Part shown: one piece after another, positions 3,826 through 60,009 of the stretch
Layout of the letters: the number at the start of each line of letters is the position of its first letter
Position numbering within the stretch: position 1 is the stretch's first letter
From: Candidatus Oxydemutatoraceae bacterium
GTDB lineage: Bacteria; Pseudomonadota; Gammaproteobacteria; Poriferisulfidales; Oxydemutatoraceae
DNA: 64,000 nucleotides
Assembly: GCA_965220085.1 (NCBI GenBank)
Contig: CBDCOZ010000001.1
Coordinates: 151,992-215,991 of the forward strand
Direction of reading: 5' to 3'
Program-made: the position numbers and the translations under genes
The notes under the pieces: generated by a model
The model's input: the letters and a program-made list of their open reading frames with translations, nothing else
The model's database searches: none
Told to the model about the DNA's origin: nothing

Positions 3826-6800
3826 GTGCGGGACACTTTCTTCAAAAACCGATACTTGACAGCGGCCATCGCGGTTGCGCTGGGGCTGTTTTTCGTGTTG
3901 CAACGCGAAGAACCGCAGCCGCTGATCCCGGACGACCCCTCTATGCCGCAGGCGTTGCGCGCGGCGATGGTCGAGCGCGATTTCGCCGCCGGCGCGCGCC
4001 AGATCAAGACGCGCGCAACGGCGGTTGCCGCCGCGGCGGCTGCCGTCGTCGGTCGCAAAGCGCGGCAACGGTTAATTGTCCTTCATGATCCGGATGTCAC
4101 GCGTATCGACGGTGTCATGGAGACGCTCGCAAACTTTCCGGAGGTGACGGTGGAGGATATGCCGTTATTCAATATGTCGATCATAGAGGCGCCGGCGAGT
4201 TGGAACCTGCAATGGCTGAATGCGCTCGTCTCACTCGACGACTCCATTGAAGCGGTCGGCCCCGATATGATCGCCAAAGGTCTGGCGGTGACGCCGAACG
4301 ATCCCGACTTCGGACAGCAACGCCACTTGTATCACGCGAGTTCTCCGGGCTCGGATATCAATGCGCGGGAAGCGTGGGCCTATACGACCGGCAACCCCGA
4401 TGTCATCGTGGCGGTGATAGATTCGGGCATAGACTATACATACGACGATTTGGCTTCCAACCTGTGGGTCAATCGCGCGGAAGCCGACGGCGTTGCCGGT
4501 GTCGATGACGATAACAACGGTTGTATCGATGACATACACGGCTGTGATTTTGTCAATGACGACGGCGACCCGTGGGATGACCGCGGGCACGGCACCCCGG
4601 TGGCGAGCGTTATCGGCATGCAAGGGAATAACGGGAGATTGGGCGCCGGCATCAACTGGAATGCCTCGATTATGTCGCTCAAGACGATCGACTACGACAA
4701 CGACGGGCGCGTATCCGATAGCGTGCGGGCGTACTACTATGTTCTGAAGATGCGTTTGGCCGGGCACAACATACGGCTTATCAATGCCAGTTACGGAACG
4801 ATTATCAGCGGCACAAACAGCTGTGCCCGGGAGGATTTGCCGACCGCCATAAGAGCCGAGCATATCGCGCTTGAGGAGTTGGGGCGCAACGGCGTGATGA
4901 CCGTCGCCGCCGCCGGCAACGAAGGCAGGGACATTGACGACCCGAGCGCAAACCGCATCACTACGCCGGCTTGCCTGGACATAGACGGGTTGTTGAGCGT
5001 CGCCTCTTTGTCTTCCCGCGGTCTTCTGGCGGGCAGTTCCAATTACGGCGCCGAGTCGGTGGACTTGGCGGCCCCCGGCACGGGCGTGTTTGCGCTTGCC
5101 CCCGGGCGGAGGAACTTTCGCGGAGACTACGGGCAGGTCTCAAGCTATGTTCCCGCGGAGCGCAAAGCCCAAGCCGCGCGGTTGGAGACCGTCGTTTCAA
5201 TTCCCGCCGATACGACGGCAACGGCGGGCTGGAGCGTCGAAGGCGGCTGGGCGCGGGTGGCGGAAGGGGAAAGAATCTATTGGACCGACAGCCCCGATGG
5301 CAACCACCCCAATCAGGCCGATTTCAGCGTGACCCGCGACCCGATCGATTTGAGCATGTACGGCGAGAATGATTACTTGTTTCTGTCATTTGAACTTGCC
5401 ACCGACCTGGAGTATGAGCCAAACCCTTCGTTGCCTCCGATATACTGCGCTTCTTCGTTTTGCGACGCCCTGTTTTTGGAAATCAGCGTCGATGGTCGGG
5501 ATTGGCGGGCGCTGGATGCGTGGAGCAATATTAATTTTGCATCCGATGTTTCCATAGGCATTCCCCGCTGGGCGTATCGTGAGAACTTTCAATTCCGCTT
5601 CCGCCTGGTTTCGGATCCCGGCACGAACAAAGATGGCGTCAGGATCTACGATATTGCGCTGACCCGCTCCGATACGGGCAGCGATGTTTCGGTGCGCTTG
5701 AGCGGCACCTCGTTTGCCGCTCCGATGGTCACCGGCGCGGCCGCGTTGCTGTGGTCTTTCAAGCCCGATTTAACGCTCGCCGAAGTGCGTTCGGCGATAC
5801 TTGACAACGTGCGGCCTTCCGCTGTCGCGGCGGTGCAAAACGGCACGGCAAGCGGCGGCACGCTCGATGCCGCCGCCGCGTTGCATTCTGTCGCCGAAGA
5901 CGGCATTGACTTGCAAGCGGGAGAAATCGCGCTGGTCGAAGGCGAGGAAGGGATGTTTGCGTTGCGCCTGACCCGCCCTCCGCAAGCGCCCGACAGCGTC
6001 GATCCCGGCGGCACATTGTCGAGTGACGACCCGCCGCCGACCATGCCGGACGCCGTTGCGGAGCAAGTGGCGCTGGCTGTCACCGCCGACCCGGCATCGC
6101 GTATTCGGGTGGATACGCCCGCTATCACGTTTACTCCGCAGAACTGGCACATCCCCCAAGCGGTTCGCTTCACAGCGGTTGACGATAACTTGGCCAATGG
6201 CGATGTGATGGCGAGGCTGCAAGTTGCGGTGCGCGCGGACGAGTCTGTGCCTTCGTATCGCGAGTTGCCGCCACAGACGGTCGTCGTCAGCGTGGCGGAC
6301 AATGAGTCAAAGTTATCGTTAGCCCCCGGCGCTCCGACACAAGTGGCGGAAGGCGCGAGCGCCACCTTCGCATTGTTGCTTGAGCCGGCCTTGAGCGAAG
6401 ACCTGACCGTCACGTTGAGCGCGACCGGCAGCGCAATCGCAGGACAGGATTATCGGGCATTGCCCGCTGCTATAACGATAGCCGCCGGTGCGGGGCGCGC
6501 GGAACTGACCCTGACGACGATTGATGATGCGTCGGCCGAGCGCACAAAAAACGTTTTGATACGGGTTGTGCCGCCGCCGTCGGCATCGGTCGTTCAAGAT
6601 CCCGTATTGATTCCGCTGGACATAGAAGACGATGACGCGCAACGTTTTTCGGTTGCGCTTGACAGAGACCGTATCAAGGAAGGCGAGCGCGCGCTTGTCA
6701 CTATCGACACGTCTATCGGCACGACCGAGGCTGTCGTCCTTTTGACAGACCGTATCGGCGGAGATGCAAGCGCCGAAGACTATCACATACCTGCGCCGGT

Positions 6801-7896
6801 CACGTTGCCGGCGGGTCAAACACAGCAACAGTTCTTTGTGACCGCCCGGACCGATGACCAAGACGAAGCCGACGAAGAGTTAATCATCCGCATAAGGTCC
6901 GCGGACGAAACCCGGTTGCGAGGGGAGCGCCGATTTGCTCTGACGCTGGAAGATACGACGATTCCCAAGTTATTGCCCCTGTCGCCGGCAGAGGCAGAGG
7001 AAGGCGAGACGGTGCGCATTGAGTTGCAAGTCGATACGCCGCCGTTGCAAGCCGTATCCGTGTGGGTGGCGGCGACGGGCACCGCCGTGCTCGGCGCGGA
7101 TTATCCGTATTTGCCGCATCAACTGCGTATTCCGGCGGGCGGAACCCGCACTTCGTTTTCGTTGCTGACCACCGAGGATAATCTTTTTGAGCCGGATGAA
7201 CAGATTCGCTTGGTGTTTGCGCCGACGACTGCGACCGACGGACACCCGTTGTTGGCGAGCAGTCAAACGATGACGGTGACGATTCGCAATACCGACGGGC
7301 GGCCGCAATTGGCATTGGACTCGCGGCTTCGTACCGACGCCGATGGCGACGCCGACCCTCAGCACCCCCCGCTCGTGATTCCGCCGAATACTCCGGACTT
7401 TGAGATGTACGGCGTTGAGCTGGCTCGCTACCTCTCGTCGGTTCTTCCGCCGAGCGCCGCCGCCGAGTTGATCACCGTTGTGGCGACGGAAGAGGCGGGA
7501 GTGCGGCACGGTTTTCGCGTTCGTATCGATCCCGCATCCGCGTATGCCGAAGCGATCACGATAGAGACATCGGGCACCGCTATTTACGGGCGCGACTACC
7601 GGATACATTTTCAACAGCCCGGCATGGAGTCGGTCGAACTGACCGAAGCGTCGGCGCGGACGAATATCGCGACAGGCACTCGAGTCGTCGCTGTTTTTGT
7701 CGAACCGCTTGCGGATGATACCGACGAAGACTTGTTTGAATTCGTCGAGGTTCGCGTATCGCCCGACGCAGGCGCGAACTTGGAAGGGGATGCGGCATTC
7801 GGATTTGTCATCGCTTCCACTTCTGCGCTCATCTTTCAAGAGGCGGAGCCCATCAGGCTGCGCTTGCGCCTCTTTCTGGAAGGCCCGCTGCGGTAG
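3826..7896 (+). CDS. Secreted S8 subtilase with inserted beta-sandwich, Calx-beta-like repeats and C-terminal LRLRLFLEGPLR tag
   Basis: Catalytic triad motifs VIDSG, HGT and GTSFAAP, oxyanion AAGN, N-terminal hydrophobic segment, repeated A..G.DY / DD...E..E motifs. Confidence 0.9.
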   Translation: MRDTFFKNRYLTAAIAVALGLFFVLQREEPQPLIPDDPSMPQALRAAMVERDFAAGARQIKTRATAVAAAAAAVVGRKARQRLIVLHDPDVTRIDGVMETLANFPEVTVEDMPLFNMSIIEAPASWNLQWLNALVSLDDSIEAVGPDMIAKGLAVTPNDPDFGQQRHLYHASSPGSDINAREAWAYTTGNPDVIVAVIDSGIDYTYDDLASNLWVNRAEADGVAGVDDDNNGCIDDIHGCDFVNDDGDPWDDRGHGTPVASVIGMQGNNGRLGAGINWNASIMSLKTIDYDNDGRVSDSVRAYYYVLKMRLAGHNIRLINASYGTIISGTNSCAREDLPTAIRAEHIALEELGRNGVMTVAAAGNEGRDIDDPSANRITTPACLDIDGLLSVASLSSRGLLAGSSNYGAESVDLAAPGTGVFALAPGRRNFRGDYGQVSSYVPAERKAQAARLETVVSIPADTTATAGWSVEGGWARVAEGERIYWTDSPDGNHPNQADFSVTRDPIDLSMYGENDYLFLSFELATDLEYEPNPSLPPIYCASSFCDALFLEISVDGRDWRALDAWSNINFASDVSIGIPRWAYRENFQFRFRLVSDPGTNKDGVRIYDIALTRSDTGSDVSVRLSGTSFAAPMVTGAAALLWSFKPDLTLAEVRSAILDNVRPSAVAAVQNGTASGGTLDAAAALHSVAEDGIDLQAGEIALVEGEEGMFALRLTRPPQAPDSVDPGGTLSSDDPPPTMPDAVAEQVALAVTADPASRIRVDTPAITFTPQNWHIPQAVRFTAVDDNLANGDVMARLQVAVRADESVPSYRELPPQTVVVSVADNESKLSLAPGAPTQVAEGASATFALLLEPALSEDLTVTLSATGSAIAGQDYRALPAAITIAAGAGRAELTLTTIDDASAERTKNVLIRVVPPPSASVVQDPVLIPLDIEDDDAQRFSVALDRDRIKEGERALVTIDTSIGTTEAVVLLTDRIGGDASAEDYHIPAPVTLPAGQTQQQFFVTARTDDQDEADEELIIRIRSADETRLRGERRFALTLEDTTIPKLLPLSPAEAEEGETVRIELQVDTPPLQAVSVWVAATGTAVLGADYPYLPHQLRIPAGGTRTSFSLLTTEDNLFEPDEQIRLVFAPTTATDGHPLLASSQTMTVTIRNTDGRPQLALDSRLRTDADGDADPQHPPLVIPPNTPDFEMYGVELARYLSSVLPPSAAAELITVVATEEAGVRHGFRVRIDPASAYAEAITIETSGTAIYGRDYRIHFQQPGMESVELTEASARTNIATGTRVVAVFVEPLADDTDEDLFEFVEVRVSPDAGANLEGDAAFGFVIASTSALIFQEAEPIRLRLRLFLEGPLR

Positions 7897-8387: not shown

Positions 8388-11300
8388 ATGCGGGATACTT
8401 TCTTCAAAAACCGGTATTTGATAGCGGCGGTTGCGGTTGCGCTGGGGCTGTTTTTCGTGTTGCAACGCGAAGAACCGCAGCCGCTGATCCCGGACGACCC
8501 CTCTATGCCGCAGGCGTTGCGCGCGGCGATGTCCGAGCGCGATTTCGCTGTCGGCGCGCGCCAAATCAAGACGCACGCGGCAACGGCGGCAGCCGTCGTC
8601 GGCCGCAAAGGGCGGCAGCGGTTGATCGCAATTCACGACCCGGATGTCACGCGTATCGACGGTGTCATGGAGACGCTCGCAAACTTTCCGGAGGTGACGG
8701 TGGAGGATATGCCGTTATTCAATATGTCGATCATAGAGGTGCCGGCGAGTTGGAACCTGCAATGGCTGAATGTGCTCGTCTCGCTTGACGACTCCATTGA
8801 AGCGGTCGGCCCCGACACAATCAACGAGGCCCGGGCAGTGATGCCGAACGATCCCAACTTCAGCGACCAACGCCACTTGCATAACGAGAGCGCTCCGGAT
8901 TTGGATATCAATGCGCGCGAAGCGTGGGCCTATACGACCGGCACCGCCGATGTCATCGTTGCGGTCATGGATTCGGGCATCGACTACACCTACGACGATT
9001 GGGCTTCCAACCTGTGGGTCAATCGCGCGGAAGCCGACGGCGTTGCCGGTGTCGATGACGATAACAACGGTTGTGTCGATGACATACACGGCTGTGATTT
9101 TGTCAATGACGACGGCGACCCGTGGGATGACGAGGGGCACGGCACCGCGGTGGCGAGCGTTATCGGCATGCGGGGGAATAACGGGAAATTGGGCGCCGGT
9201 ATCAACTGGAATGCCTCGATCATGTCGCTCAAGGTGCTCGGCTATGACAGCCGGGGACGCACATCCGACATTATTCTGGCGTACTACTATGTTCTGAGGA
9301 TGCGTCTGGCCGGGCACAACATACGGCTTATCAATGCCAGTTTTAGCGCGGTCATCAGCGGCGCCAGTCAGTGCGACAGGGAGCGGTTATCGGCAACCAG
9401 AAGGATGCAGTATATCGCGATTGAAGAGCTGGGGCGCAACGGTGTGATGACCGTCCAAAGTGCCGGCAATGACAGCAGCAACCTGGATAATCCGAATGAG
9501 GGCCGCATCGTCGTGCCGGCTTGCTTTGATATAGACGGGTTGTTGAGCGTCGCCTCTTTGTCTTCCAACGGTTCTCTGGCGCGCAGTTCCAATTACGGCG
9601 CCGAGTCGGTGGACTTGGCGGCCCCCGGCACGGGCGTGTTTGCGCTTGGTCCCGGCAGGGCTTTTTCCGGAAGCTACACGCAGACCCCAAACTATGCTCC
9701 CGCGCAACGCAAAGCCCCGGACGCCCAGTCGGAGACGGTCGTTTCAATTGCCGCCGATACGACCTCAACGGCGGGCTGGAGCGTCGAAGGCGGCTGGGCG
9801 CGGGTGGCGGAAGGGGAAAGAATCTATTGGACCGACAGCCCCGATGGCAACTACCCCAATCGGGCCGATTTCAGCGTGACCCGCGATCCGATCGATCTGA
9901 GCGAGTACGGCGAGGATGATTACTTGTTTCTGTCATTTGAACTTGCCACCGACCTGGAGTATGAGCCAAACCCTTCCACACCCCCGATACGCTGTGCTTC
10001 TACGTTTTGCGACGCCCTGTTTTTGGAAATCAGCGTCGATGGTCGGGATTGGCGGGCGCTGGATGCGTGGAGCGATGTGAATTTCGCCGACGATGTTTCC
10101 ATAGGCATCCCCCGCTGGGCGTATAGCGAGAACTTTCAATTCCGCTTCCGCCTGGTTTCGGATCCCGGCACGAACAAAGATGGCGTCAGGATCTACGATA
10201 TTGCGCTGACCCGCTCCGATACGGGCAGCGATGTTTCGGTGCGCTTGAGCGGCACCTCGTTTGCCGCTCCGATGGTCACCGGCGCGGCTGCTTTGCTGTG
10301 GTCTTTCAAGCCCGATTTAACGCTCGCCGAAGTGCGTTCGGCGATACTTGACAACGTGCGGCCTTCCGCTGTCGCGGCGGTGCAAAACGGCACGGCAAGC
10401 GGCGGCACGCTCGATGCCGCCGCCGCGTTGCATTCTGTCGCCGAAGACGGCATTGACTTGCAAGCGGGAGAAATCGCGCTGGTCGAAGGCGAGGAAGGGA
10501 TGTTTGCGTTGCGCCTGACCCGCCCGCCGCAAGCGCCCGACAGCGTCGATCCCGGCGGCACATTGTCGAGTGACGACCCGCCGCCGACCATGCCGGACGC
10601 CGTTGCGGAGCAAGTGGCGCTGGCTGTCACCGCCGACCCGGCATCGCGTATTCGGGTGGATACGCCCGCTATCACGTTTACTCCGCAGAACTGGCACATC
10701 CCCCAAGCGGTTCGCTTCACAGCGGTTGACGATAACTTGGCCAATGGCGATGCGGTGGCGAGGCTGCAAGTTGCGGTGCGCGCGGACGAGTCTGTGCCTT
10801 CGTATCGCGAGTTGCCGCCACAGACGGTCGTCGTCAGCGTGGCGGACAATGAGTCAAAGTTATCGTTAGCCCCCGGCGCTCCGACACAAGTGGCGGAAGG
10901 CGCGAGCGTTGCCTTCGCATTGTTGCTTGAGCCGGCCTTGAGCGAAGACCTGACCGTAACGCTGACGACGACCGGCAGCGCGATCGCGGGACAAGACTAT
11001 CAGGCGTTGCCCGCCACGATAACAATCGCCGCCGGCGAAGAGCGCGCGGAGTTGACCCTGACGACGATTGATGATGACGTGGCCGAGCGCACAGAAAGGG
11101 TTTTGATACGGGTCCTGCCGCCGTCGACGTCGACATCGGTCGTTCAAGATCCCGTATTGATTCCGCTGGACATAGAAGACGATGACGTGCAACGTTTTTC
11201 GGTTGCGCTTGACAGAGACCGTATCAAGGAAGGCGAGCGCGCGCTTGTCACTATCGACACGTCTATCGGCACGACCGAGGATGTCGCCCTTTTGACAGAC

Positions 11301-14300
11301 CGTATCGGCGGAGATGCAAGCCCCGAAGATTATCAAATACTACCTGCGCAGGTCACGTTGCCGGCGGGTCGAACACAACAGCAGTTCTTTGTTGCCGCCC
11401 GGACCGATGACCAAGACGAAGCCGATGAAACTCTGATCATCCGCATAAGGTCCGCGGACGAAACCCGGTTGCGAGGGGAGCGCCAACTTGCTTTGACGCT
11501 GGAAGATACGACGATTCCCGAGTTGCTGCCCCCGGCGCCGGTGTCGGTCGGCGAAGGCGAGACGGCGCACATTGAGTTGGAAGTCAATACGCCTGTGCTG
11601 CAAGAAGTGTCCGTGTGGGTGGTCGCGACGGGCACCGCCGTGCTCGGCGCGGATTATCCGTATTTGCCGCATCGGTTGCTTATTCCGGCGGGCTCCACCC
11701 GCACTTCGTTTTTGTTGCGACCGACCGCGGATGATATTTTTGAGCCGGATGAACAGATTCGCTTGGGATTCATACCGGCCGACGAACAACTGTTGTCGGG
11801 CAGTCAAACCCTGACTGTGACGGTTCGCGATACCGGCGCGCGGCCGGAATTGGCATTAAATCCCGGCCGACTTTGGATTAGCGGGGAGGCTCGGTACCCT
11901 AGGGCGGTTATTCCGCCGAGCGCCGCCGGCGAGTTGGTGACCGTTGTGGCGCGGGAAGAGACGGATGTGCGGTTCGGTTTGTCCGTTCGTATCGATCCCG
12001 TATCCGCTTTTGCCGAAGCGATCACGATAGAGACATCGGGCGCCGCTGTTTACGGGCAAGACTACCTGGCATATTTTTGGCAGTCGGGCCTTCTGACCGG
12101 ATTGCCCGAGATGCCCGCGCAGAGGGATATCGCGACCGATACTTCAATCGTCGCTATTTTTATTGAGCCGATTGCGGATGATGTTGACGAATGCTTGTTC
12201 AAACACATCGAGGTGCGCGCATCGCCCGGCGAAGATACAAACTTGACCGGGGAGGCGGCGTTTGAATTTGTTATCGCGTCAACGTCCGCGCCGTCGTTTT
12301 CCGTAGCGCCCGCCGGGTTGCAATCGGTTGAGGAAGGCCAAAGCATCGAGGCCACGCTCCTGTTCTGCAATCCGTTGCTGCGTGACGAAATCTTCTATTT
12401 GAGCATCGACGATACCGCCGTCTCGCCCGGCGCTGCGGCGGCGGACCCCGGCGATTACATATTCCCGCCGTTGTTTGCGGCGCCAAGGGGGGCGACCCAA
12501 ACCGTCGTGCGCATCTTAATCCGCGCCGATGGCATTGCGGAACCCGCCGAGGAGTTGCGCCTGGTTTTTAATCCGGCTGATCCCGGCGGCGGTTTGACCG
12601 GGCGGGCGCAACTCAGTCTGGTGATAGAAGATAGGTCGAGGTTATCGTTGGCCGCCGACGCTCCGACACAAGTGGCGGAAGGCGCGAGCGCCACCTTCGC
12701 CTTGTTGCTGGAGCCGCCCTTGAGCGAAGACCTGACCCTGATGCTGACGACGACCGGCAGCGCGATCGCGGGACAGGACTATCGGGCGTTGCCCGCCACG
12801 ATAACGATAGCCGCCGGCAAGGAGCGCGCGCAGTTGACCCTGACGACGATCGATGATGCGGCGGTCGAGCGCACAGAAAGTGTTTTGATACGGGTCCTGC
12901 CGCCGTCGACGTCGACATCGGTCGTTCAAGATCCCGTATTGATTCCGCTGGATATAGAAGACAATGACGCGCAACGTTTTTCGGCTGCGCTTGACAGAGA
13001 CCGTATCAAGGAAGGCGAGCGCGCGCGGGTCACTATCGACACGCCTGTCGGCACGACCGGGGATGTCGCCTTTTTGATAGACCGCATCGGCGGAGATGCA
13101 AGCCCCGAAGATTATCAAATACCTGCGACGGTCACGTTGCCGGCGGGTCAAACGGAACAGCAGTTCTTTGTTACCGCCTTGACAGATGACAAAGACGAAG
13201 CCGATGAAGAGTTGATTATCCGCATAAGGTCCGAGGATGAAGCTCGGTTGCAAGGGGAGTACGAATTTACTCTGACGTTGGAAGATACGACGATTCCCGA
13301 GTTGTTGCCTCTGTCGCCGAGGTCGGTTGAGGAAGGCACGACGGCGACCATTGAGTTGGCGGTCGATACGCCGGTGTTACAAGCCGTATCCGTCGCGGTG
13401 ACAGCGACAGGCACCGCCGTATTTGGCACGGATTATTCGTATTCGACGCAACAGTTGGTGATTGCGGCGGGTTCCACCCGCACTTCGTTTTTGCTAGAAG
13501 CGCTCAAGGATGATATTTTTGAGTTGGAGGAGCGGATTATCCTGACGTTTGCGCCGACCGATGAACAACTGCTGTCGGGCAGTCAAACGATGACTGTGAC
13601 GATTCGCAACACCGATGAACGGCCGAAATTGGCATTAGTTCCCCAGCTTGTTGTTGACGGGGACCCTCGGCACCCTTCGGCGGTTCTTCCGCCGAGTACT
13701 GCCGGCGAGTTGGTTACCGTTGTGGCGAGGGAAGATGCGGGCGCACGGTCCGGTTTTTCCGTGAGCATCGATCCCGCATCCGCTTTTGCCGAAGCGATCA
13801 CGATAGAGACCTCTGCCACCGCTGTTTACGGGCAAGACTACCGGATACATTTTCGCCAGTCCGGTGCGGAATCGGTCGCGCTGCCCGCAGCGCCGGCGCG
13901 GGCGGATATCGCGACAGGCACTCGAGCCGCTGCTATTTTTGTCGAACCGCTTGCCGATGACGTTGACGAATGCAAATTCAAATTCATCGAGGTTCGCGCA
14001 TCGCCCGGCGAAGGGACAAACTTGACCGGGGAGGCGGCGTTCGGGTTTGTCATCGCTTCTGCGTCCGCGCCGTCGTTTTCCGTAGCGCCCGCCGGAGCGC
14101 GATCGGTTGCGGAAGGCCAGAGCATAGAGGTCACGCTCCTTTTCTGCAATCCGTTGCTGCGTGATGAGGTTATCAATCTGCGCGTTGACGAGACCGCCGT
14201 CTCAACCGGCACGGCGGCGGCGGGCCCCGACGATTACGCACTCTTGCCGCAGTCTTTGACGGTGCCGCAACCTTTGACGGCGCCAAAGGGGGCGACCCAA

Positions 14301-14501
14301 ACCGTCGTGCGCCTCTTAATCCTTGCCGATGATACGGACGAACCTGCCGAGGAGTTGCGCCTGCTTTTTGAGCCGGCAGACCCCGGCGGCGGTTTGACCG
14401 GGCGGGCGCGAATCAGTTTCGTGATAGAAGACGTGATGTCTCGAGATTCGGAACCTGTCAAACTGCGCTTGCGTCTCTTTTTGGAAGGCCCGTTGCGGTA
14501 G
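8388..14501 (+). CDS. Paralogous secreted S8 subtilase with duplicated Calx-beta-like block and C-terminal LRLRLFLEGPLR tag
   Basis: VMDSG, HGT and GTSFAAP motifs. Highly similar to 3826..7896. Internal ~1.78-kb duplication (units start ~10856 and ~12637). Confidence 0.9.
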   Translation: MRDTFFKNRYLIAAVAVALGLFFVLQREEPQPLIPDDPSMPQALRAAMSERDFAVGARQIKTHAATAAAVVGRKGRQRLIAIHDPDVTRIDGVMETLANFPEVTVEDMPLFNMSIIEVPASWNLQWLNVLVSLDDSIEAVGPDTINEARAVMPNDPNFSDQRHLHNESAPDLDINAREAWAYTTGTADVIVAVMDSGIDYTYDDWASNLWVNRAEADGVAGVDDDNNGCVDDIHGCDFVNDDGDPWDDEGHGTAVASVIGMRGNNGKLGAGINWNASIMSLKVLGYDSRGRTSDIILAYYYVLRMRLAGHNIRLINASFSAVISGASQCDRERLSATRRMQYIAIEELGRNGVMTVQSAGNDSSNLDNPNEGRIVVPACFDIDGLLSVASLSSNGSLARSSNYGAESVDLAAPGTGVFALGPGRAFSGSYTQTPNYAPAQRKAPDAQSETVVSIAADTTSTAGWSVEGGWARVAEGERIYWTDSPDGNYPNRADFSVTRDPIDLSEYGEDDYLFLSFELATDLEYEPNPSTPPIRCASTFCDALFLEISVDGRDWRALDAWSDVNFADDVSIGIPRWAYSENFQFRFRLVSDPGTNKDGVRIYDIALTRSDTGSDVSVRLSGTSFAAPMVTGAAALLWSFKPDLTLAEVRSAILDNVRPSAVAAVQNGTASGGTLDAAAALHSVAEDGIDLQAGEIALVEGEEGMFALRLTRPPQAPDSVDPGGTLSSDDPPPTMPDAVAEQVALAVTADPASRIRVDTPAITFTPQNWHIPQAVRFTAVDDNLANGDAVARLQVAVRADESVPSYRELPPQTVVVSVADNESKLSLAPGAPTQVAEGASVAFALLLEPALSEDLTVTLTTTGSAIAGQDYQALPATITIAAGEERAELTLTTIDDDVAERTERVLIRVLPPSTSTSVVQDPVLIPLDIEDDDVQRFSVALDRDRIKEGERALVTIDTSIGTTEDVALLTDRIGGDASPEDYQILPAQVTLPAGRTQQQFFVAARTDDQDEADETLIIRIRSADETRLRGERQLALTLEDTTIPELLPPAPVSVGEGETAHIELEVNTPVLQEVSVWVVATGTAVLGADYPYLPHRLLIPAGSTRTSFLLRPTADDIFEPDEQIRLGFIPADEQLLSGSQTLTVTVRDTGARPELALNPGRLWISGEARYPRAVIPPSAAGELVTVVAREETDVRFGLSVRIDPVSAFAEAITIETSGAAVYGQDYLAYFWQSGLLTGLPEMPAQRDIATDTSIVAIFIEPIADDVDECLFKHIEVRASPGEDTNLTGEAAFEFVIASTSAPSFSVAPAGLQSVEEGQSIEATLLFCNPLLRDEIFYLSIDDTAVSPGAAAADPGDYIFPPLFAAPRGATQTVVRILIRADGIAEPAEELRLVFNPADPGGGLTGRAQLSLVIEDRSRLSLAADAPTQVAEGASATFALLLEPPLSEDLTLMLTTTGSAIAGQDYRALPATITIAAGKERAQLTLTTIDDAAVERTESVLIRVLPPSTSTSVVQDPVLIPLDIEDNDAQRFSAALDRDRIKEGERARVTIDTPVGTTGDVAFLIDRIGGDASPEDYQIPATVTLPAGQTEQQFFVTALTDDKDEADEELIIRIRSEDEARLQGEYEFTLTLEDTTIPELLPLSPRSVEEGTTATIELAVDTPVLQAVSVAVTATGTAVFGTDYSYSTQQLVIAAGSTRTSFLLEALKDDIFELEERIILTFAPTDEQLLSGSQTMTVTIRNTDERPKLALVPQLVVDGDPRHPSAVLPPSTAGELVTVVAREDAGARSGFSVSIDPASAFAEAITIETSATAVYGQDYRIHFRQSGAESVALPAAPARADIATGTRAAAIFVEPLADDVDECKFKFIEVRASPGEGTNLTGEAAFGFVIASASAPSFSVAPAGARSVAEGQSIEVTLLFCNPLLRDEVINLRVDETAVSTGTAAAGPDDYALLPQSLTVPQPLTAPKGATQTVVRLLILADDTDEPAEELRLLFEPADPGGGLTGRARISFVIEDVMSRDSEPVKLRLRLFLEGPLR

Positions 14502-15092: not shown

Positions 15093-15219
15093 AAAGAGAG
15101 GTGTTTCCAACGCCTCTCGCCGCTACTACTGGCAAGGAGCAAGACGATGATTCAGCGGCGGGCTATGTGGCTAGGCTCTTCATCAGGGGTTCACACTGCC
15201 GGACAGAACAAGCCTTGAG

Positions 15220-15621
15220 TCAGGACTTTGGCCTTTTAAAAATTTTCCCAATCTTGTCCTTGAGTGCCTGATAAAATATGAATAGCACCATGGAACCGGA
15301 AAGGAATGTGCCTAACCCCTTGCCATGGTATGCCAGAAAAACCCCTCCAACCGCAAGAACAAGCAGTATGACAAATGTAAACCGATTCGTTTGTTTCCTG
15401 TCATAATGTCTTTGGGCTTGCTCTTTTGCCATGCACTCCAACATCTGTCTCTGCGCCTCGGGAGAATAGCTATTAAATATTTTAGGCGGGAGGATTGGGG
15501 CTTCCCATACTTGTTGCACAAAATGAGATGCTTGTTTGCTTTTGATCGGATCAGTGGGGTCATCAGAGGAGGGCTCGACCGGGGTATCAGAATCTTTAGA
15601 GTTCTCAATTTTAGGCGGCAT
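15220..15621 (-). CDS. DUF2335-like membrane protein
   Basis: WEAPILPP...MAKEQAQRH followed by two TM helices. Confidence 0.6.
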   Translation of the reverse strand: MPPKIENSKDSDTPVEPSSDDPTDPIKSKQASHFVQQVWEAPILPPKIFNSYSPEAQRQMLECMAKEQAQRHYDRKQTNRFTFVILLVLAVGGVFLAYHGKGLGTFLSGSMVLFIFYQALKDKIGKIFKRPKS

Positions 15622-15693
15622 TGCGGTTAGGTTCCGTGCTAAACAAGGCGCTCAGAAGCGCTATATCAACTTTCTTTCTGTCGCTTGAAAGAT

Positions 15694-15978
15694 TCATGCT
15701 ATCTGTGCGAAAACCTTTGGCGCCGAACCAATCACCGCTCGGCTCATCAGAAAAAAGTCGGCAAAAGCCAAAGGGCTCAAAAAACCATTGTCGTCTTCCT
15801 GCTTTCTCATCTTGTTGAATTCGACTGCGACAGCTTTCGCAAGCTCTTCGTCCCGCAAAATGTATTCAATGCTCTCTTCATAAGAGCGCATGGCATCTGC
15901 CATAATCTCCTCTTGCTGAGAGACCGGTTCCGACTCTATCAGAAATGGAAAACCTTGTTGTTTCAGAGGGTTTGTCAT
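15694..15978 (-). CDS. Hypothetical protein
   Basis: Open frame from ATG 15978. The longer ORF call begins inside MITE copy 2. Confidence 0.35.
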   Translation of the reverse strand: MTNPLKQQGFPFLIESEPVSQQEEIMADAMRSYEESIEYILRDEELAKAVAVEFNKMRKQEDDNGFLSPLAFADFFLMSRAVIGSAPKVFAQIA

Positions 15979-16125
15979 AAGCGCTATCTTGCTAACAATT
16001 ATTGATGAACTAATTCGGCAAACAGGAATCATACAAAATAATGCCGGAAAAACAAAATTACGGCGGGTGCCGTTTTGCAATTTAACCCCAAATCCCCTTA
16101 ATAACCTTTGCCTATAAAACAAAAA

Positions 16126-16320
16126 GGGAATTATATGCCTGTGTATGCAAAACAGCCTATCAGTCCGCAATCCTAAAATTGACTCCGGCCATTTCACTGC
16201 TTTGTGCTCTGTTTCAGACATCTTATACAGTTCAAATAATCCGATTGTCTTTGCCTTTCTCTTTGTCATTGAAATACCTCTGTTTAATGGTCTAATTGCA
16301 TACACAGGCATATAATTCCC
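16126..16320 (-). mobile_element. 195-bp MITE, copy 2 (inverted)
   Basis: Reverse complement of copy 1 with a few SNPs. No flanking duplication. Confidence 0.85.
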
Positions 16321-16621
16321 GGTTAGTCGGTGTGGTTAGTAATAACTGCTATACTAGGCATGAGAAAAACAAGGCGAAGTGAAAGCAACGCCCGTTTCCG
16401 AATTATCCCAAACTAAAAAGGTGGCGGTGATTATTATGAAAACTATCAACTGCTCTGCGGGCATTGCAACCGCGCAAAAGGAAACCGCTCTATGGAGTAT
16501 TTGCGAACAAGGATAACATGCCGTAAAAGTGTCATTAAGTTTTGGGCGGTAATTGAGAACAGAAAGCCGACAGAGAAAGAGCTTAAAACAGCATACAGGA
16601 TTACCAAAATGCTAAAACCTT

Positions 16622-17155
16622 GTGAGTACGATGCGGTTTGAGATTGTCGGAGCCTACCTTTATGAGGGGGCGAGGACAGAAACAGCAGAACGGCAGAATC
16701 TTTTCATAAGAAGTGCGATTAACCGCTATTACTACGCGGCATTTCATGTGAAAATAGAAATGTATAAGTGTCTGCACAAAGATCATGGTATAAACCTCAT
16801 GGGGAAAGGCGGAAAAGCAAAGCATCATGGCATTAGAAGAGAGCATAAAAAGAATATATTAAGGAAAATCTCCTCAGAAGATCAATCTACGATGATGAAA
16901 GGGCACTTAGATGCTTTTAGTACTCTCCTTCAGGAAGCTTATGGATATAGGAGGGTAGCAGATTATGAGCCCGATACAGATGTCACTTTAGACACCACAA
17001 GAACCAATAAAATAATGTTTAAATCGGCGACACAAAACGAGTGCATGGAGATAGACTTTGAAGAGGTTCGTGAATGGCCGGAGGAAGCCCGCCAGCGCAG
17101 TCAGGAAATCATTCGGATAGTAGAGAATCAATTGCCCCGTGATCCGGCTAGTTAA
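16622..17155 (+). CDS. HEPN-domain protein, putative retron effector
   Basis: SAINRYYYAAFH and YRRVADY motifs typical of HEPN domains. Same operon as the RT. Confidence 0.75.
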   Translation: MSTMRFEIVGAYLYEGARTETAERQNLFIRSAINRYYYAAFHVKIEMYKCLHKDHGINLMGKGGKAKHHGIRREHKKNILRKISSEDQSTMMKGHLDAFSTLLQEAYGYRRVADYEPDTDVTLDTTRTNKIMFKSATQNECMEIDFEEVREWPEEARQRSQEIIRIVENQLPRDPAS

Positions 17156-17747
17156 TACGATGCATAAATCATCTATCAATACAGGAGACCGACAAGATTT
17201 AGAAAGAACTGTAACCACTTTCCTCCGAAGGCGTTGGGGAAATGAAGTTTCAGGTGTTTTTATGACCATCCATGAAGAGGACGAGACTATTGATGTCCTT
17301 ATAGATCTCTCTGAGGCTTCTCTTATTGACCAAGATGGAATAAAAGCCGACTATTTAAAACTGCTACGGGAGATGAAATTACGCTCAGGAAAAATCAGTT
17401 GGATTGCTCGCAGTGGCTTGGTTGACAAAACGTGGCTCTTAACACTTTTGAAAATCATAGGGTCTGCGAGTCTGCAAGATATCATTAAAGCCGTCAAGGA
17501 AAACTTTCCCTATATAGAAGAGAGCCAAGTGAAAAAGAAAATAGAGTCTTTGCGAAGAAGCGGAGAAATAATATGGCAACCTCCTCACACTGACACAAAT
17601 AATTTGGCCACCTATGCGCTTACTAAAAAAGGGTTGGATATAGCCCGCTCCTTTATTGGAACACAAAGCCCGGACGTAAGAAGGGCTCTATATTTGAGTG
17701 CACAGTGTAAAAAGTGTGTTAGTATTGCTAATAGGAGTGGCGAATGA
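17139..17747 (+). CDS. Winged-helix/HTH protein, retron-associated
   Basis: C-terminal wHTH-like pattern (SLQDIIKAV...IESLRRSGEI...YALTKKG). Overlaps the HEPN stop. Confidence 0.65.
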   Translation: MIRLVNTMHKSSINTGDRQDLERTVTTFLRRRWGNEVSGVFMTIHEEDETIDVLIDLSEASLIDQDGIKADYLKLLREMKLRSGKISWIARSGLVDKTWLLTLLKIIGSASLQDIIKAVKENFPYIEESQVKKKIESLRRSGEIIWQPPHTDTNNLATYALTKKGLDIARSFIGTQSPDVRRALYLSAQCKKCVSIANRSGE

Positions 17748-17894
17748 ATTGCAGGGTATGCCATCATACTCGCCGCGCAAGGCTAGGCAAAGAAGGGCGC
17801 TCCACATTGGGTCGCTTTTCCTTCAGAAAGCGCGACCAAATGTGTCGCTTGTTAAACAATAGTCAAACATAGCCGTGATAGCCCCGCCACTCCT
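17733..17894 (+). ncRNA. Putative retron msr-msd RNA
   Basis: Long imperfect hairpin at 17803-17844, small GTATG/CATAC hairpin, and a 10-bp inverted pair AGGAGTGGCG (17733-42) / CGCCACTCCT (17885-94). Boundaries uncertain. Confidence 0.55.
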
Positions 17895-18900: not shown

Positions 18901-18930
18901 GGCGTTGGTCGAAGGCCTGCATTTCCAATT

Positions 18931-19227
18931 CTAATAATAGGGTCTGGCTTTAACTATGTCCTTTAACTCATCAATCTCAAGCCAAGGTTCTTTGCGATGG
19001 ATCATTCGGTGACAACTAGCGCAAACGAGGATTAAATCCTCTGGGCAGGTCTCGCGCGCGCCGTCGCTGAGTGGTCGGGTATGGTGACACTCAATATAGC
19101 CATCGCCGCGTTCGCCATAATTTTTACGATAATTGAAGTCGCACACCTCACAAAAAATATCCTTATATTCTTCTAAGAACAATGCTTTTTTGTGTTGAAC
19201 GAGTCCGTTATTGATAGTCATCGTTTT
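18931..19227 (-). pseudogene. McrA-like HNH endonuclease, 5'-truncated by MITE copy 3
   Basis: CEVC...IECHH...LVCASCHRMIH. The frame abuts the MITE TIR. Confidence 0.7.
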
Positions 19228-19422
19228 GGGAATTATATGCCTGTGTATGCAATCAGACCATTAAACAGAGGCATTTCAATGACAAAGAGAAAGGCAAAGA
19301 CAATCGGATTATTTGAACTGTATAAGATGTTTGAAACAGAGCACAAAGCAGTGAAATGGCCGGAGTCAATTTTAGGATTGCGGACTGACAGGCTGTTTTG
19401 CATACGCAGGCATATAATTCCC
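19228..19422 (+). mobile_element. 195-bp MITE, copy 3
   Basis: Near-identical to copy 1. Confidence 0.85.
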
Positions 19423-39173: not shown

Positions 39174-42160
39174 ATGAATAAACAGACTTTTAACACTACC
39201 CCCCCCCCCCCCCCCCCCACTGGCGGGCAACGCTAACCCGGCTTAGCCTCTGGTCGCTGGTTCTGCCAGCCCTGTTTGCCATCTGCGCTCAGGCGCAGGC
39301 GGCCAAGCCGGACATCTTCGGTGCATTCGTAGACGTATACACCAACGCCAACGCCGACAGCCCCTACGCCTTCAAGAAGACCGACTTCCCGTTCCACGAT
39401 GGCGATGGCGACGAACTGCAAAGCATAACCATCCTCAGCATACCCCAACGCGGCACTTTGCGGGTGGGCGGATCCGCTGTCACTGTGCCCCGGGATGTGG
39501 CCGCCGCCGCCATCGGCGACATTACCTACTACCCGGAGCCGGGCCAGAGTCCGACCGCCAACTACGCCACCTTTCTCTTCACTGTCACGGCTGGCGGAGA
39601 AACCTCCCTACAGGCTGCAAGCAACACCATCCGGCTGGTGTTGCGGTCACAGTCCGCTGCCACCGGCTCGCCCGCCATCACCGCCCAGAGTCAGACCGCC
39701 CAGAGTACCTGGGATGAGGACATACTGCTGACAGCCGCTATGGACACTGTTGCCGATGCCAACGGCATAAGCGCCGGCACCATTGCTTGGCGGTGGGAAC
39801 AATCGCCCTTCCGGAATCGGCTCTACGCCGCCATCAGCGGCGCCACCGCCATCACTTTCACCCCTCGGCAGGCCCAGGTGGGCATGTATATCCGCGCCTG
39901 CATCAGCTTTATGGACATGCATATCCCTCCCAGGCTTGAGACCGTCTGCTCCGCCGGCACCCAAGTGATGAACATCAGCGATGCCCCCGTCGGGGCCGAC
40001 TCCGTTGTGAATGTGTCCGCCGAGGTCACCGCGGCCAACCCGTACGACTTTGCCCTCAGCGACTTTCCGATAGACGATGCGGACGGCGACACCCTCAACG
40101 GCATCCGCATCATATCTCTGCCGACTGCGGGCACTCTGGTGGCGGGTCAGATTATCGCCGCCATCGGTACCGAACTGACTCTGACCCAACTCAACGCTCT
40201 GGCCTATTACCCCGACAGCGGTTCCGCCGCCATGAATGGCCACGACAGCTTCGACTACCGGGTGATAGACACCGGCAGCGCCGGCGCCAACATCGCCACC
40301 GCCGAGGTCACCCTCACCATCAACCTGACCGTCAATAGAACACCGCAGGGCGCTATCGGCATGGTGTTGTCGGATGGGGGCGCCGACCTCATAACCACCG
40401 TGGCCCAGAGACAGACAGTCCGTGCCAGTGCGACCGGCCTGCGCGATGAGGATGGCCTGCCCGTAGCGGAACAACTTGACTTCAGTTGGCAACTCAGTAC
40501 CGCCGTCGGCCTGGGCTGGGAAGAGGTGGCCTGGGACACCGACAGATACACCCCGTTATCGCAAGACCATGTGGACAAGAATCTGCGCCTGTGCGTCTTT
40601 TACACCGATGGCCGGGGCACCGCCGAGGGCGGCGACCCCGCCACTGAGAACAGCCGCATACGCACCGCCAGCATCTGCTCCGCCCCCGTCAGAGTGACCG
40701 ATGTCAACGACCCGCCTGCACACGGACTGCGCCACACCAGCGCGGTGCCGGCATCCGCCACCGCCGACAATCCATACCGGTTTAAGGCATCAGACTTTTG
40801 GTTCATAGACCCCGATGGCGATATGCTGGCCGCTATTATCTTTGATACCCTGATACCGGGGGGCACCCTGACCCTGAATGGCAGACCCGTCTCTACTGGC
40901 ACCGGAAACTCCATAACTGTAACCGTGGCCCAGCTGACCGCCGGTGCTCTGGCCTGGTACCCGGAATCCGGTCAGCAACCCGCCAACCTCTATTCTACCT
41001 TTGTCTACACGGTGGTGGACGACAACGATGATGGCACCGGCAAAAACACCGCGTCGGGAGTTAATTTCATACTCATAGACCTGACATCGCCAGACCAGAT
41101 GGCGGCCACCGGCGCGCCCACAATATCACCGGACACCAGCGCCGCCGAGGGCACCCGGCTGACCGCCAGCTACCTCGGCATTGCCGATCTCAACAGCATA
41201 GACTGGAGAACCCTGAGGTGGCAGTGGCAGGTATCCGCTACCAGCACCGGCACCTTTGCCGCCATAGCCGGCGCTACCGCGCAAGAATTCGTCATTACGC
41301 AGGCCCATGTTGACCAATACATAAGAGTCTGCGTAACCTTTAGGGATCGCCACGCGACTCCGGCGGAGGAGGGCCCGTTCTGTTCCGCCGCAGTCCAAAC
41401 CACTAATGTCAACAATGCGCCGGTGGCGCAAGACGGCCACATCAATGTGCCCATGGGTGCGACGATGGCCAGCCCCTACGCTTTCAAGGCGAGCGACTTT
41501 CCGTTCGCCGACGAGGACGGCGATATGCTGGCCAGCGTCACTCTGGCATCGCTGCCGGCATCCGGCGCCCTGCGCAACGGCTCCGCCGCCGCCATGGTCG
41601 GCGACACCATAGTCGCCGCCGACATCGCAGACCTTACGTATTACCCCGCCGCCGGGCAGAGCGCCCGGAGCGGCTACGCCGAATTCACCTTCAATGTGAC
41701 CGACGATGGCAGCGATGGCACAGGCAACAAGGACAGCGCCCGCCCCGCCGCCATCACGATAAACCTAATCACCTCCGTCCCGACGGATGCTACCGGCGCA
41801 CCCACAGTGACCGCCGCTCTGGCCACCGACACTGCCTACCTGCAGGACGCACCGCTTGTCGCATCCGCAGATGGCATCACCGAACCCAACGGCATCCAGA
41901 GCGCCATCCGCTGGCAATGGCAATCTGCCCCGGCCCCGGCCAGCGGCCCCCCGGCCAGCGGCGCATACACCCCCCTCGCCGGCGCCACCGATGCTATTTT
42001 CACTCCCCGCCAGGCCCATGCGGGCATGTACATCCGCGCCTGCGCCAGCTTCACCGATAGCATAGGCACCAGCGAGGAACTGTGCTCCGCCGCCGCCCGT
42101 ATTGTGCCAACAGCCTTGCGCTTGCGGTTGCGTCTTTTTCTTGAAGGCCCGTTGCGGTAG
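39174..42160 (+). CDS. Exported cadherin/Ig-like repeat protein (4 A-B domain pairs) with C-terminal LRLRLRLFLEGPLR tag; frameshifted at a C20 tract
   Basis: AGGAG-ATG at 39174. The frame after the tract reads WRATLTRLSLWSLVLPALFAICAQAQA and continues into ORF 39458..42160. Confidence 0.85.
39199..39218 (+). repeat. Poly-C(20) tract in leader, candidate phase-variation switch
   Basis: C18 or C21 would restore the frame (~995 aa). Confidence 0.85.
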
Positions 42161-42644: not shown

Positions 42645-42702
42645 GTCCGCATTGTATATTGATTCGGGCGGAAATCGGAAATTGTTTGACCCGGGGTTTC
42701 CG

Positions 42703-42719
42703 TGCTACAATTCCTCCGA
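42703..42719 (+). promoter_or_regulatory. Extended -10 promoter, probably giving a leaderless MTase mRNA
   Basis: TGcTACAAT (42703-11) ends 7 nt before ATG 42719. No SD sequence. Confidence 0.5.
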
Positions 42720-44356: not shown

Positions 44357-44377
44357 TTCGGAAGAACCATGAAGGCT

Positions 44378-44978
44378 ATGAAGCGACAAATTTTTAATAC
44401 TACCCCCCCCCCCCCCCCCTACTGCGCTTAGAATCTGTGCGGCGGTAATACTCGCTTGCGCATTTGCAAACAGCGCGTACGCGCAAACCGAAGAATGCCC
44501 CGAAGGGCAAACGCGAGTCACGGGCCTCACCGGCACCAATTGCTTTCCTGATGCCGCGGTTGACATTCTGGATGACTGCGAAGATGCGGGATGGGCGGGG
44601 CGTCAAGCGCCCGTGTTCATCACGGACGGAGAATTGGGTTGCTCCATTGCCTCCCTCGTATACACGCGCACCGGCCAAAATACCGGCTCCGAATGTTTCA
44701 TACATGGAGGACTTCGCCCCTTATGCACGGATGTGTATGGCAACCCGCCGGTTTTTCCGAAAGCGGCGGACCATCCCGAAGTCAAAACAGGGACGAGGAG
44801 CTTTGTCGCAAACTGCGACCGCGACGGAGATGTCCCCGGCGGTTATCCGCCGGCCCACAACTTGAACGGCAGAACCGAATGCGCTTGCGGCGGCGCCGGA
44901 TACATCGGGCCCTGGCCCGACTGCGTTCCCGGCTTGCGCTTGCGCTTGCGCGTTTTCCTGGAAGGGCCGTTGCGATAG
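44378..44978 (+). CDS. Small exported Cys-rich protein with C-terminal LRLRLRVFLEGPLR tag; frameshifted at a C17 tract
   Basis: MKRQIFNTT-P(n), then the shifted frame TALRICAAVILACAFANSAYA-Q continues into ORF 44613..44978. Ten Cys in the mature part. Confidence 0.8.
44403..44419 (+). repeat. Poly-C(17) tract in leader, candidate phase-variation switch
   Basis: C16 or C19 would restore the frame (~199 aa). Confidence 0.85.
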
Positions 44979-45066
44979 CGCGAGTGTCTGGTGGCGGAGC
45001 AGGGGAGTGTTGTGGGGTGCGCAAGAGGATGGAACAGGATACCGGGTATGTACGCAACGTTTGATG

Positions 45067-59157: not shown

Positions 59158-60009
59158 GGCGATTGTCACTTCATCCCGTCAGGCGGCAATCATCATATGA
59201 CTCCCGCGCGGCGGGAAGCAACGATGATACGGCGCAGTCTCTGCTCGCTTCTGTTGCTCGCCCTGTTTGTTGTCTGCGCTCAAGCGCAGGCGCAGACCAA
59301 CAATAGACCGGTTTCACACGGCAACACCATCTATGTGCCGGTGGGCGGCAGCTACACTTTCTCGGCGGGTGACTTCCCCTTCACCGATGCCGATGGCGCT
59401 GCCTTGCACACGGTGCAGATTTCGACCATACCTGCTAATGGCGGCATTGCTCTGGCAGGGGCTGTGCAACCACCTGTGGCATTCAATATATCGTCAAGCC
59501 TTTTAAATAACGGGTCTTTAGTCTACACACCGTCCACTAATGCCACCACAGCCATGGCGAGCTATACCAGTTTTATGTTCAATGTCTGGACTGGACCTGC
59601 TGAATCTAGCATCAGCAATGCCACCATGACCATAGATCTGGTGCAGGCCACGGCATCGCCGGCAACCGGCGCACCGACGGTAACGGCGGCATCGGGCGCC
59701 GCCTACAACGAGGATGTGGAACTGACCGCCAGCGCTACAGGCATCGCCGATGCTAACGGCATACCTACCCACACCCGCAGCTGGCAATGGCAACAGTCAG
59801 CCACCCAGGCCGGCACATACGCCGCCATAGCCGGGGCCACCGCCGCCACATTCACACCTCTGTCGGCGCATATCGGCCAATACATCCGCGTTTGCTTCAG
59901 TTTCACCGATGGCATAGGCACCCCCGAGATGCTTTGCACCACCGGTACCGGTGTGTTCAATGCTTTGCGCTTGCGGCTACGCCTCTTTCTGGAAGGCCCG
60001 TTGCGATAG
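59119..60009 (+). CDS. Exported cadherin/Ig-like protein (one A-B pair) with C-terminal LRLRLRLFLEGPLR tag
   Basis: Leader MNSQISIRPP...ATMIRRSLCSLLLLALFVVCAQAQAQ. Homologous to the repeats of 39174..42160. Start uncertain (59089, 59119 or 59224). Confidence 0.85.
   Translation: MNSQISIRPPHGRGDCHFIPSGGNHHMTPARREATMIRRSLCSLLLLALFVVCAQAQAQTNNRPVSHGNTIYVPVGGSYTFSAGDFPFTDADGAALHTVQISTIPANGGIALAGAVQPPVAFNISSSLLNNGSLVYTPSTNATTAMASYTSFMFNVWTGPAESSISNATMTIDLVQATASPATGAPTVTAASGAAYNEDVELTASATGIADANGIPTHTRSWQWQQSATQAGTYAAIAGATAATFTPLSAHIGQYIRVCFSFTDGIGTPEMLCTTGTGVFNALRLRLRLFLEGPLR

Follow-up and report, generated by a model that had tools for sequence, protein, structure and literature searches.

Short C-terminal signals have repeatedly led to the discovery of new envelope machineries, as in the cases of sortase, exosortase, rhombosortase and the type IX secretion system (T9SS). 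The GlyGly-CTERM/rhombosortase system is linked to type II secretion substrates, and rhombosortase needs a substrate with a transmembrane (TM) segment. Chaperone-usher and type V pili use a donor strand with alternating hydrophobic residues, which may stand at either end of the subunit, and the loop of the Limulus anti-LPS factor is an amphipathic cationic beta-strand motif that binds lipid A. The stretch of DNA analysed here (the window, 64,000 nt) belongs to the genome of a Candidatus Oxydemutatoraceae bacterium (G000; 2,492,841 bases in three contigs) and holds five genes whose products end in the same short peptide, hereafter the tail, which fits x[RK]LRLR[LV]FLEGPLR followed by a stop codon. 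We show that this tail is a real, selected and portable tag on exported proteins, that it is restricted to one bacterial family and that it matches no described signal. It lacks a membrane span, and no enzyme for it is evident, so that its principle of action may be a different one.

The five tails were found at the gene ends given in the earlier note on this DNA, in frame with long open reading frames (ORFs), and each is followed by TAG:

3826..7896, forward strand: exported S8 subtilase/Calx-beta protein of 1356 amino acids (ORF; Peptidase_S8 at 1e-39; Calx-beta), with the tail IRLRLRLFLEGPLR read from the sequence at 7852-7893 and TAG at 7894-7896
8388..14501, forward strand: paralogous S8 subtilase/Calx-beta protein of 2037 amino acids (ORF and domain search), with the tail VKLRLRLFLEGPLR at 14457-14498
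39174..42160, forward strand: gene of an immunoglobulin (Ig)-like repeat surface protein, 47% identical to the body of the gene ending at 60009, with the tail LRLRLRLFLEGPLR at 42116-42157; ATG at 39174, poly-C at 39199-39218 (20 C), then the signal-peptide ORF, whose frame is off by 2 as assembled
44369..44978, forward strand: gene of a small Cys-rich exported protein with no Pfam family, with the tail LRLRLRVFLEGPLR at 44934-44975; ATG at 44369 or 44378, poly-C at 44403-44419 (17 C), then the signal-peptide ORF, whose frame is off by 1 as assembled
59239..60009, forward strand: two-domain Ig-like exported protein of 256 amino acids, counted from the ATG before the signal peptide, with the tail LRLRLRLFLEGPLR at 59965-60006

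The bodies are those that had been described, namely two S8 subtilase/Calx-beta proteins, two Ig-like sandwich proteins and one small Cys-rich protein, and the synonymous differences between the window copies (ctg/ttg/ctt, ggc/ggg and cgg/cga) are present. The claim that every one of them has an N-terminal export signal holds in part. Three of the genes code for classical AxA-type signal peptides, but the two subtilases are ambiguous, their N-terminal hydrophobic stretch being equally possible as a signal anchor. In the genes ending at 42160 and 44978 the signal-peptide ORF is present, but the ATG lies out of frame with it across the poly-C tract.

The comparison with TIGRFAM/NCBIfam sorting-signal models gave no match. 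No Pfam or NCBIfam model was found on the tail, either in the five whole proteins or in eight C-terminal 60-residue pieces from three genera, and the full-text literature searched contained no mention of FLEGPLR or related strings. These results agree with the earlier statement that the tail lacks a TM helix, a terminal aromatic residue and any likeness to a named signal. With its 12-14 residues and no hydrophobic span it differs from the LPXTG signal, and the genome contains no match to the sortase family PF04203; it also has no PEP motif followed by a TM helix and a basic cluster, as in PEP-CTERM, and the exosortase family PF09721 has no match in the genome. The Gly-rich motif, TM helix and terminal basic cluster of GlyGly-CTERM are missing from the tail. 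The likeness to the GlyGly-CTERM/rhombosortase system lies in the use of a short C-terminal tag on Sec-exported proteases and adhesins, with many cargos, in Gammaproteobacteria that have type II secretion (accessible part of PMC3237569). The tripartite sorting signals (LPXTG, PEP-CTERM, MYXO-CTERM and others) likewise place a small invariant signature on many unrelated exported proteins in certain lineages, according to the available part of the source (10.1101/2023.06.07.544157). Unlike these, the tail has no membrane span, and its signature comes after the basic/hydrophobic stretch and not before it.

Larger C-terminal modules are also distinct. The C-terminal domain of T9SS substrates is a beta-sandwich of about 70-100 residues, and the eight C-terminal pieces matched no such model in NCBIfam or Pfam; the autotransporter barrel has about 250 residues and an aromatic end. 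The tail is far shorter than either, as had been claimed. The type Va autotransporter domain PF03797 has no match in G000 at E ≤0.001, as compared to 11 of 11 genomes of the sister family (f2), where the barrel stands on homologous Ig-like passengers. The autotransporter junctions of seven relatives show no likeness to the tail, and tblastn of the barrels against G000 gave nothing at 1e-3. A beta-signal for the beta-barrel assembly machinery does not fit either, the tails ending in R, Q, E, N or P with no barrel upstream. As to type I secretion, the tail cargo has signal peptides and the best match to TIGR01843 in the genome reached 23 bits against a cut-off of 208. Dockerin (PF00404) is a calcium-binding fold of about 60 residues, as compared to the 12-14 of the tail, and has no match in G000. 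Lipid A-binding motifs share with the tail the alternation of basic and hydrophobic residues; they differ in being hairpins or free peptides, with no counterpart of the FLEG cap. Donor strands resemble it in their alternation, but the modelled cargo has no incomplete Ig fold; usher and chaperone families were not searched for in G000.

A regex scan of the genome, as proposed in the earlier note, left the observation itself standing and changed its scale, the five window copies being a sample of about 220. A strict match to R-Φ-FLEGPLR (where Φ is a hydrophobic position) occurs 218 times in the genome and lies directly before a stop codon in 213 cases (TAG 134, TAA 51, TGA 28). When up to 4 of 12 residues were allowed to differ, 237 sites were found genome-wide, 224 of them directly before a stop, and a DNA-level search that took no account of translation and allowed up to 11 of 39 bases to differ likewise returned 237 copies. 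Chance is excluded, since the back-translated pattern gave 215 matches in the genome and its reversed control none. The ORFs of the 221 terminal copies, with starts that we chose, cover 463,869 bases, corresponding to 18.6% of the genome. Their median length is 342 amino acids; 15 have at least 1000, and the largest has about 15,100. Tail genes stand in arrays, as 181 of the 221 tail ends have a neighbouring tail within 4 kb. A few decayed, frameshifted copies are also present.

It is the peptide that is under selection, as the pattern of codon differences indicates. In the 237 copies found at DNA level, 916 codons off the consensus are synonymous and 140 non-synonymous, the latter being mostly swaps of L, I and V at one position; mismatches at codon positions 1, 2 and 3 amount to 381, 48 and 724, respectively, and all three stop codons are in use. 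Protein-level selection, which had been proposed from the window copies, is thus confirmed. Furthermore, the 120 bases 3' of the stop fall into 86 clusters among the 221 copies, so that a single DNA repeat does not account for the tail. The largest cluster, with 52 members, is a shared non-coding element; others consist of a ribosome-binding site and the start of the next gene of the array.

The shared element lies directly 3' of the stop and is found in the window at 42161-42215 and 44979-45035 (TAGCGCGAG…GCGGAGCAGGGGAGTGTT…). In other places the tail and its downstream DNA are repeated in tandem, with periods of about 156, 58 and 168 nt, giving chains of short tail-ended ORFs. Besides window-type copies, tandem copies were seen at:

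G000 C3, about 513700-514230: tandem tail copies
G000 C3, 648670-648970: tandem tail copies
G000 C3, 908960-909480: tandem tail copies

The occurrence of the tail on many unrelated bodies, first noticed in the window, extends to the whole genome. When 188 proteins are grouped by the 72 residues that precede the tail, at least 13 classes are obtained. They include Ig/cadherin-like domain ends (81), a Cys-containing Ig-like domain (42), Cys-rich modules (35 and 10), giant cadherin-like proteins (11), PPC domains and Calx-beta subtilases. The body of the gene ending at 60009 has at least 65 paralogous matches in the genome. According to a simple heuristic, 142 of the 188 tail proteins of at least 100 amino acids have a signal-peptide-like N-terminus, and many of the remaining 46 cases either have the signal peptide after a proline run or are truncated proteins. 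In the relatives, all five N-termini of tail proteins that were read are likewise signal-peptide-like.

Three paralogues carry a conserved copy of the tag in an internal position, with a signal peptide, 22 conserved residues, LRLRLRVFLEGPLR, a GGS linker and then the body, which consists of PPC repeats or of a weak trypsin-like domain (E 0.019, below the cut-off):

G000 C1:24020, N-terminally tagged paralogue
G000 C1:36519, N-terminally tagged paralogue
G000 C3:1171586, N-terminally tagged paralogue

In addition, the tag is not at the very end in variants of the relative G006, where 4-15 residues come after it. The C-terminus thus need not be free, as would suit a binding motif. With respect to recognition of the PDZ type, 213 of the 218 strict copies are terminal, whereas three are conserved at internal sites, the G006 copies have 4-15 residues after them and the terminal residue is not a hydrophobic one.

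The tail genes have another peculiarity at their 5' end. Homopolymer runs of C or G that reach 9 nt or more (9-28 nt) number 90 in the genome, as compared to 2 of A or T. In 76 of the 90 the run stands 5' in a tail ORF and reads as C in the coding direction, corresponding to 76 of 192 tail genes. Each of these tracts separates a short conserved start, made up of ATG and about 8 codons, from the signal peptide. In a frame test of the 76 tracts, 18 were in frame, 49 were out by one or two and 9 gave no call. This arrangement suggests the anatomy of phase-variable contingency genes, for which an in-frame share of about one third would be expected, although errors of homopolymer assembly may explain the frame states; contigs break at poly-C tracts, and the raw reads at these places are poly-C artefacts. 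If they are switches, the tracts would make this genome a candidate for one of the largest phase-variable repertoires at such a genome size, which bears on how a symbiont copes with host recognition, grazing or phages.

The distribution of the tail was analysed in eighteen relatives of the same family (G001-G018), which include four genera (g1-g4), and in wider samples. The exact G000 form was found in none of 40 relatives and in none of the collected genome and metagenome contigs, from which the records of this genome itself were possibly excluded. With three mismatches allowed, the tail was detected in 8 of 18 genomes of the family and in none of 22 others of the order, and controls gave no match. 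A looser pattern matched 10 of 53 genomes of the order and 2 of 401 sampled genomes of the class, both of these in this family (0 of the 399 others). Still looser stop-anchored counts were 217 in G000, 43 in G007, 26 in G015, 25 in G016, 20 in G002, 19 in G017, 16 each in G011 and G018, 8 in G003 and 4 in G012. A loose scan of genome contigs gave at least 46 loci, of which 44 are in records of Candidatus Oxydemutatoraceae, Porisulfidus or Chromatiales metagenome-assembled genomes (MAGs); among the matches listed, these 44 are all at the ends of ORFs of at least 102 amino acids, and the other 2 are due to chance. One protein of the Logan assemblies ends in LLLRLRLFLEGPLQ. The names of these records are placed among sponge symbionts in the accessible parts of two papers (PMC11685487, PMC12988363).

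Across the family the consensus is Φ-[RK]-Φ-[RK]-Φ-FLEG-[PA]-L-x, and such diverged tails end giant signal-peptide proteins in four genera. The last residues vary by lineage: GPLR in g1, to which G000 belongs, GAVIP in g2 (G006), GPLQ or GPFR in g3, and GALE, GALQ or GALN in g4. G006 had no match to the stop-anchored patterns, yet 7 of its large ORFs end in [RK]-Φ-[RK]-VFLEG plus 4-15 residues (AVIP, AVIPSSAP and others), with none in the control. The end-free core pattern found nothing in G001, G008 and G004 and one chance-like match each in G005 and G009; G010, G013 and G014 were scanned with the stop-anchored patterns. On a midpoint-rooted tree of GspC and GspD the motif is present in both deep branches of the family, and it is missing from some genomes that stand beside carriers (G008 next to G003, and G001 next to G006). 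Two tail proteins of G003 have no homologue in G008. One FLEG protein of G006 shows 28-30% identity over about 1,400-1,500 residues to three giant tail proteins of G000.

In some relatives a different C-terminal module occupies the place of the tail. The S8/Calx-beta homologue of G001 ends in Dockerin_1, which scores over its cut-off. This genome contains 10 dockerin matches, mostly in giant ORFs, and all eight ends that were read consist of a dockerin plus a short basic peptide. Dockerin thus stands in G001 as a C-terminal docking module on giants and on the S8/Calx-beta protease, where G000 has the tail. In G006 the 7 FLEG ends are accompanied by GlyGly-CTERM-like ends on about ten giant ORFs. 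The presence of dockerin, GlyGly-CTERM and, in f2, the autotransporter in the place of the tail is our main reason for considering it an anchoring or docking element.

In G001 the giants, which reach 17,496 amino acids, and the S8/Calx-beta protease share a conserved basic …ENKGRRRxFSVx after the dockerin (L103, L123-L130), which may be a second unnamed terminal motif.

The periodicity of the tail is of the strand type. The hydrophobic moment of LRLRLRLFLE is 1.14 at 170 degrees per residue, as compared to 0.40 at 100 degrees, so that the peptide as a strand would have one leucine face and one arginine face; three hydrophobic-basic pairs are present in 159 of the 221 copies and two in 50. The amphipathic beta-strand proposed earlier is therefore supported as far as this arithmetic goes, but the strand itself was not seen in the AlphaFold2 model of the 256-residue protein ending at 60009, and the strand conformation is a conjecture from the periodicity. 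The model consists of two complete Ig-like sandwiches (mean predicted local distance difference test, pLDDT, of 92), for which the matches in the PDB were generic tandem-Ig structures.

As regards the export context, G000 has one Omp85 and one TolC protein, with no search aimed at ShlB-type or usher families, no HlyD-type adaptor near the cut-off and two ABC_membrane proteins. It also has two secretins, one of which is inside a complete gspC-D-A-B-E-F-G-…-K operon. All family genomes searched for them have GspD (15 of 15) and GspC (19 of 19), and in f2 a match to the G000 GspD was found in one of four genomes, weak and with 25% identity. Two divergent genes immediately precede the type II operon:

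G000 C3, just upstream of gspC (L094:4265-7767): TPR/retropepsin-like protease and O-antigen-ligase-like (Wzy_C) TPR protein, in divergent orientation

G000 also encodes a rhombosortase that passes the curated cut-off, as well as two GlyGly-CTERM-like proteins. The rhombosortase gene lies just downstream of one of 1369 amino acids, about 11 kb from the type II operon:

G000 C3:470148-475553: rhombosortase and GlyGly-CTERM-like protein

The window itself was confirmed to hold no evident cognate machinery, the annotated envelope machinery being limited to a TonB-dependent receptor. A linked enzyme gene was found neither in the window nor at 14 tail loci of G003, G012 and G002. An acidic alternating partner strand was also looked for, and the 11 scattered matches were not convincing. 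A DUF1640/CCDC90-like family was considered as a partner because it clusters with tail genes, and was rejected since it is essentially confined to G000 and looks cytoplasmic. Its 15 ORFs in G000 have a conserved N-terminus, variable coiled-coil repeats and a C-terminal TM helix, with a weak CCDC90-like/DUF1640 match, and 13 of them have a tail end no more than 3.1 kb away (binomial p about 7e-6). Examples are:

G000 C3, 858538-859278: DUF1640-like ORF
G000 C3, 1300387-1300857: DUF1640-like ORF
G000 C3, 1342026-1342886: DUF1640-like ORF
G000 C3, 2018313-2020767: DUF1640-like ORF

The explanation that we favour, with a confidence that falls somewhat short of even, is that the tail, a lineage-specific tag under purifying selection, serves surface retention or docking and would act after Sec and type II export. 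The cargo would cross the inner membrane by Sec and leave the periplasm by type II secretion, which is the only evident route. The arginine/leucine stretch, capped by the FLEG turn, would then bind an outer-membrane component in a non-covalent way and retain the protein at the surface. This component could be lipopolysaccharide or a receptor or scaffold protein. The poly-C tracts of 76 of the 192 tail genes, which are of the kind carried by phase-variable surface genes, are in line with surface exposure. Type II export of the tail cargo, the function in retention and the nature of the partner are all put forward as suppositions.

Several observations weigh against this explanation. The alternative anchors are an analogy, in which homologous bodies were compared in the case of the subtilase only. 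GspD and GspC had to be rejected as tail-specific partners, being present throughout the family whether or not the motif was found, and rhombosortase for the same reason: 18 of the 19 family genomes pass the TIGR03902 cut-off irrespective of the tail, including G001, G008, G004, G009 and G005, in which the core motif was not found. The neighbours shared at the 14 tail loci were the Nqr operon and other housekeeping genes only, and altogether no tail partner emerged from the neighbourhoods, the window, the type II genes or rhombosortase. The lack of a linked or co-distributed gene favours a general partner, which is in tension with the invariance of FLEG, since the latter speaks for recognition by an enzyme or a specific pocket in a protein and not for a loose association with lipopolysaccharide. 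We know of no precedent for type II export of proteins of up to 15,000 amino acids. Finally, the AlphaFold monomer drew the tail as a helix (pLDDT about 70), which we do not take as its conformation.

If retention is true, a 12-residue tag that is tolerated at either end of a protein could be used as a display tag. In a small uncultured sponge symbiont the tail marks nearly a fifth of the DNA and probably defines the whole variable surface. A bolder version of the docking explanation, which we regard as rather doubtful, is that the FLEG tail represents a new Gram-negative surface display signal, free of both barrel and sortase, in which an amphipathic 12-residue peptide at either end docks type II cargo of any size up to 15,000 amino acids. 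It would have taken the place of the autotransporter, dockerin and GlyGly-CTERM anchors of relatives and would display about 220 surface proteins, at least 76 of them switched by poly-C.

The tail might instead be an export signal that targets periplasmic cargo to an outer-membrane translocon, either type II, for example through the PDZ-like end of GspC, or another one; it would then serve passage through the outer membrane and not retention at the surface. All the cargo is Sec-exported, and G000 has a full type II operon and neither autotransporters nor a recognisable type I system. The presence of autotransporters in 11 of 11 f2 genomes, together with a G000-like GspD in one of four (weak), suggests a change of export route, and the C-terminus of GspC gave a weak PDZ-like match (E 0.025, below the cut-off). 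However, family genomes in which the motif was not found still have GspD and GspC at full length, so that type II secretion works without the tail, and a tag that is kept near the N-terminus or 4-15 residues from the end is a poor fit to the recognition of a free carboxylate by PDZ domains. To our knowledge, no linear type II signal is known. We consider an export signal unlikely.

Even less can be said for a processing site, in which an envelope enzyme would recognise FLEG, cleave nearby and possibly form a covalent bond between the protein and a lipid, a glycan or a second protein, in the manner of a sortase but with no TM segment in the signal. The genome contains no exosortase or sortase match, the distribution of rhombosortase does not match that of the tail and the tail genes have no linked enzyme gene. 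An invariant FLEG next to a basic/hydrophobic stretch does resemble the logic of sorting signals, as set out in the available part of the source (10.1101/2023.06.07.544157). The residues after G vary by lineage and in length, like a leaving group, and one N-terminally tagged protein has the weak trypsin-like match mentioned above. We consider processing at FLEG quite improbable.

In self-assembly, each tail would pair up with other tails or with domains of the cargo, in the manner of a cross-beta zipper or a donor strand, so as to form a coat of about 200 proteins. The strongly strand-like periodicity, the use of the tag at either protein end and the large share of the genome devoted to tail proteins (18.6%) are in line with such a coat. 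Since both Ig-like domains of the modelled cargo are complete sandwiches predicted at high confidence, and some relatives have only 4-8 tail proteins, which are few for a coat, self-assembly appears improbable to a high degree.

We find it very hard to credit that the peptide is host-directed, binding through its arginines to the sulfated sponge matrix or carrying proteins onto or into host cells, because the invariant FLEG would be left unexplained; the cargo is rich in adhesin-like Ig and cadherin-like domains, and the relatives come from sponge-associated MAGs according to the accessible parts of PMC11685487 and PMC12988363. That the tail has no protein function and merely reflects, in coding sequence, a DNA repeat or recombination handle that duplication and gene conversion have spread, as its arrays (181 of 221 ends within 4 kb of another), its tandem copies and the downstream element shared by 52 of 221 copies might suggest, is nearly refuted by the codon differences (916 against 140, with 48 mismatches at position 2 against 724 at position 3), by the use of all three stops, by the 86 downstream classes and by the conservation of the peptide across genera with quite different codons.

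Two further observations concern other parts of the window. Positions 15200-19250 form an island of low GC content at third codon positions (GC3), with values of 0.38-0.47 as compared to about 0.7 around it, which may be a retron-like or other defence or mobile unit. It contains several ORFs with no family and:

17875-18897: RVT_1 reverse transcriptase
18934-19221, reverse strand: HNH endonuclease

The DNA methylase region at 42631-44363 has about ten times the depth of the adjoining tail gene in the Logan contigs of runs X1 and X2, with 36-42 base differences, which suggests that a related, more abundant strain or element is present in the same samples.

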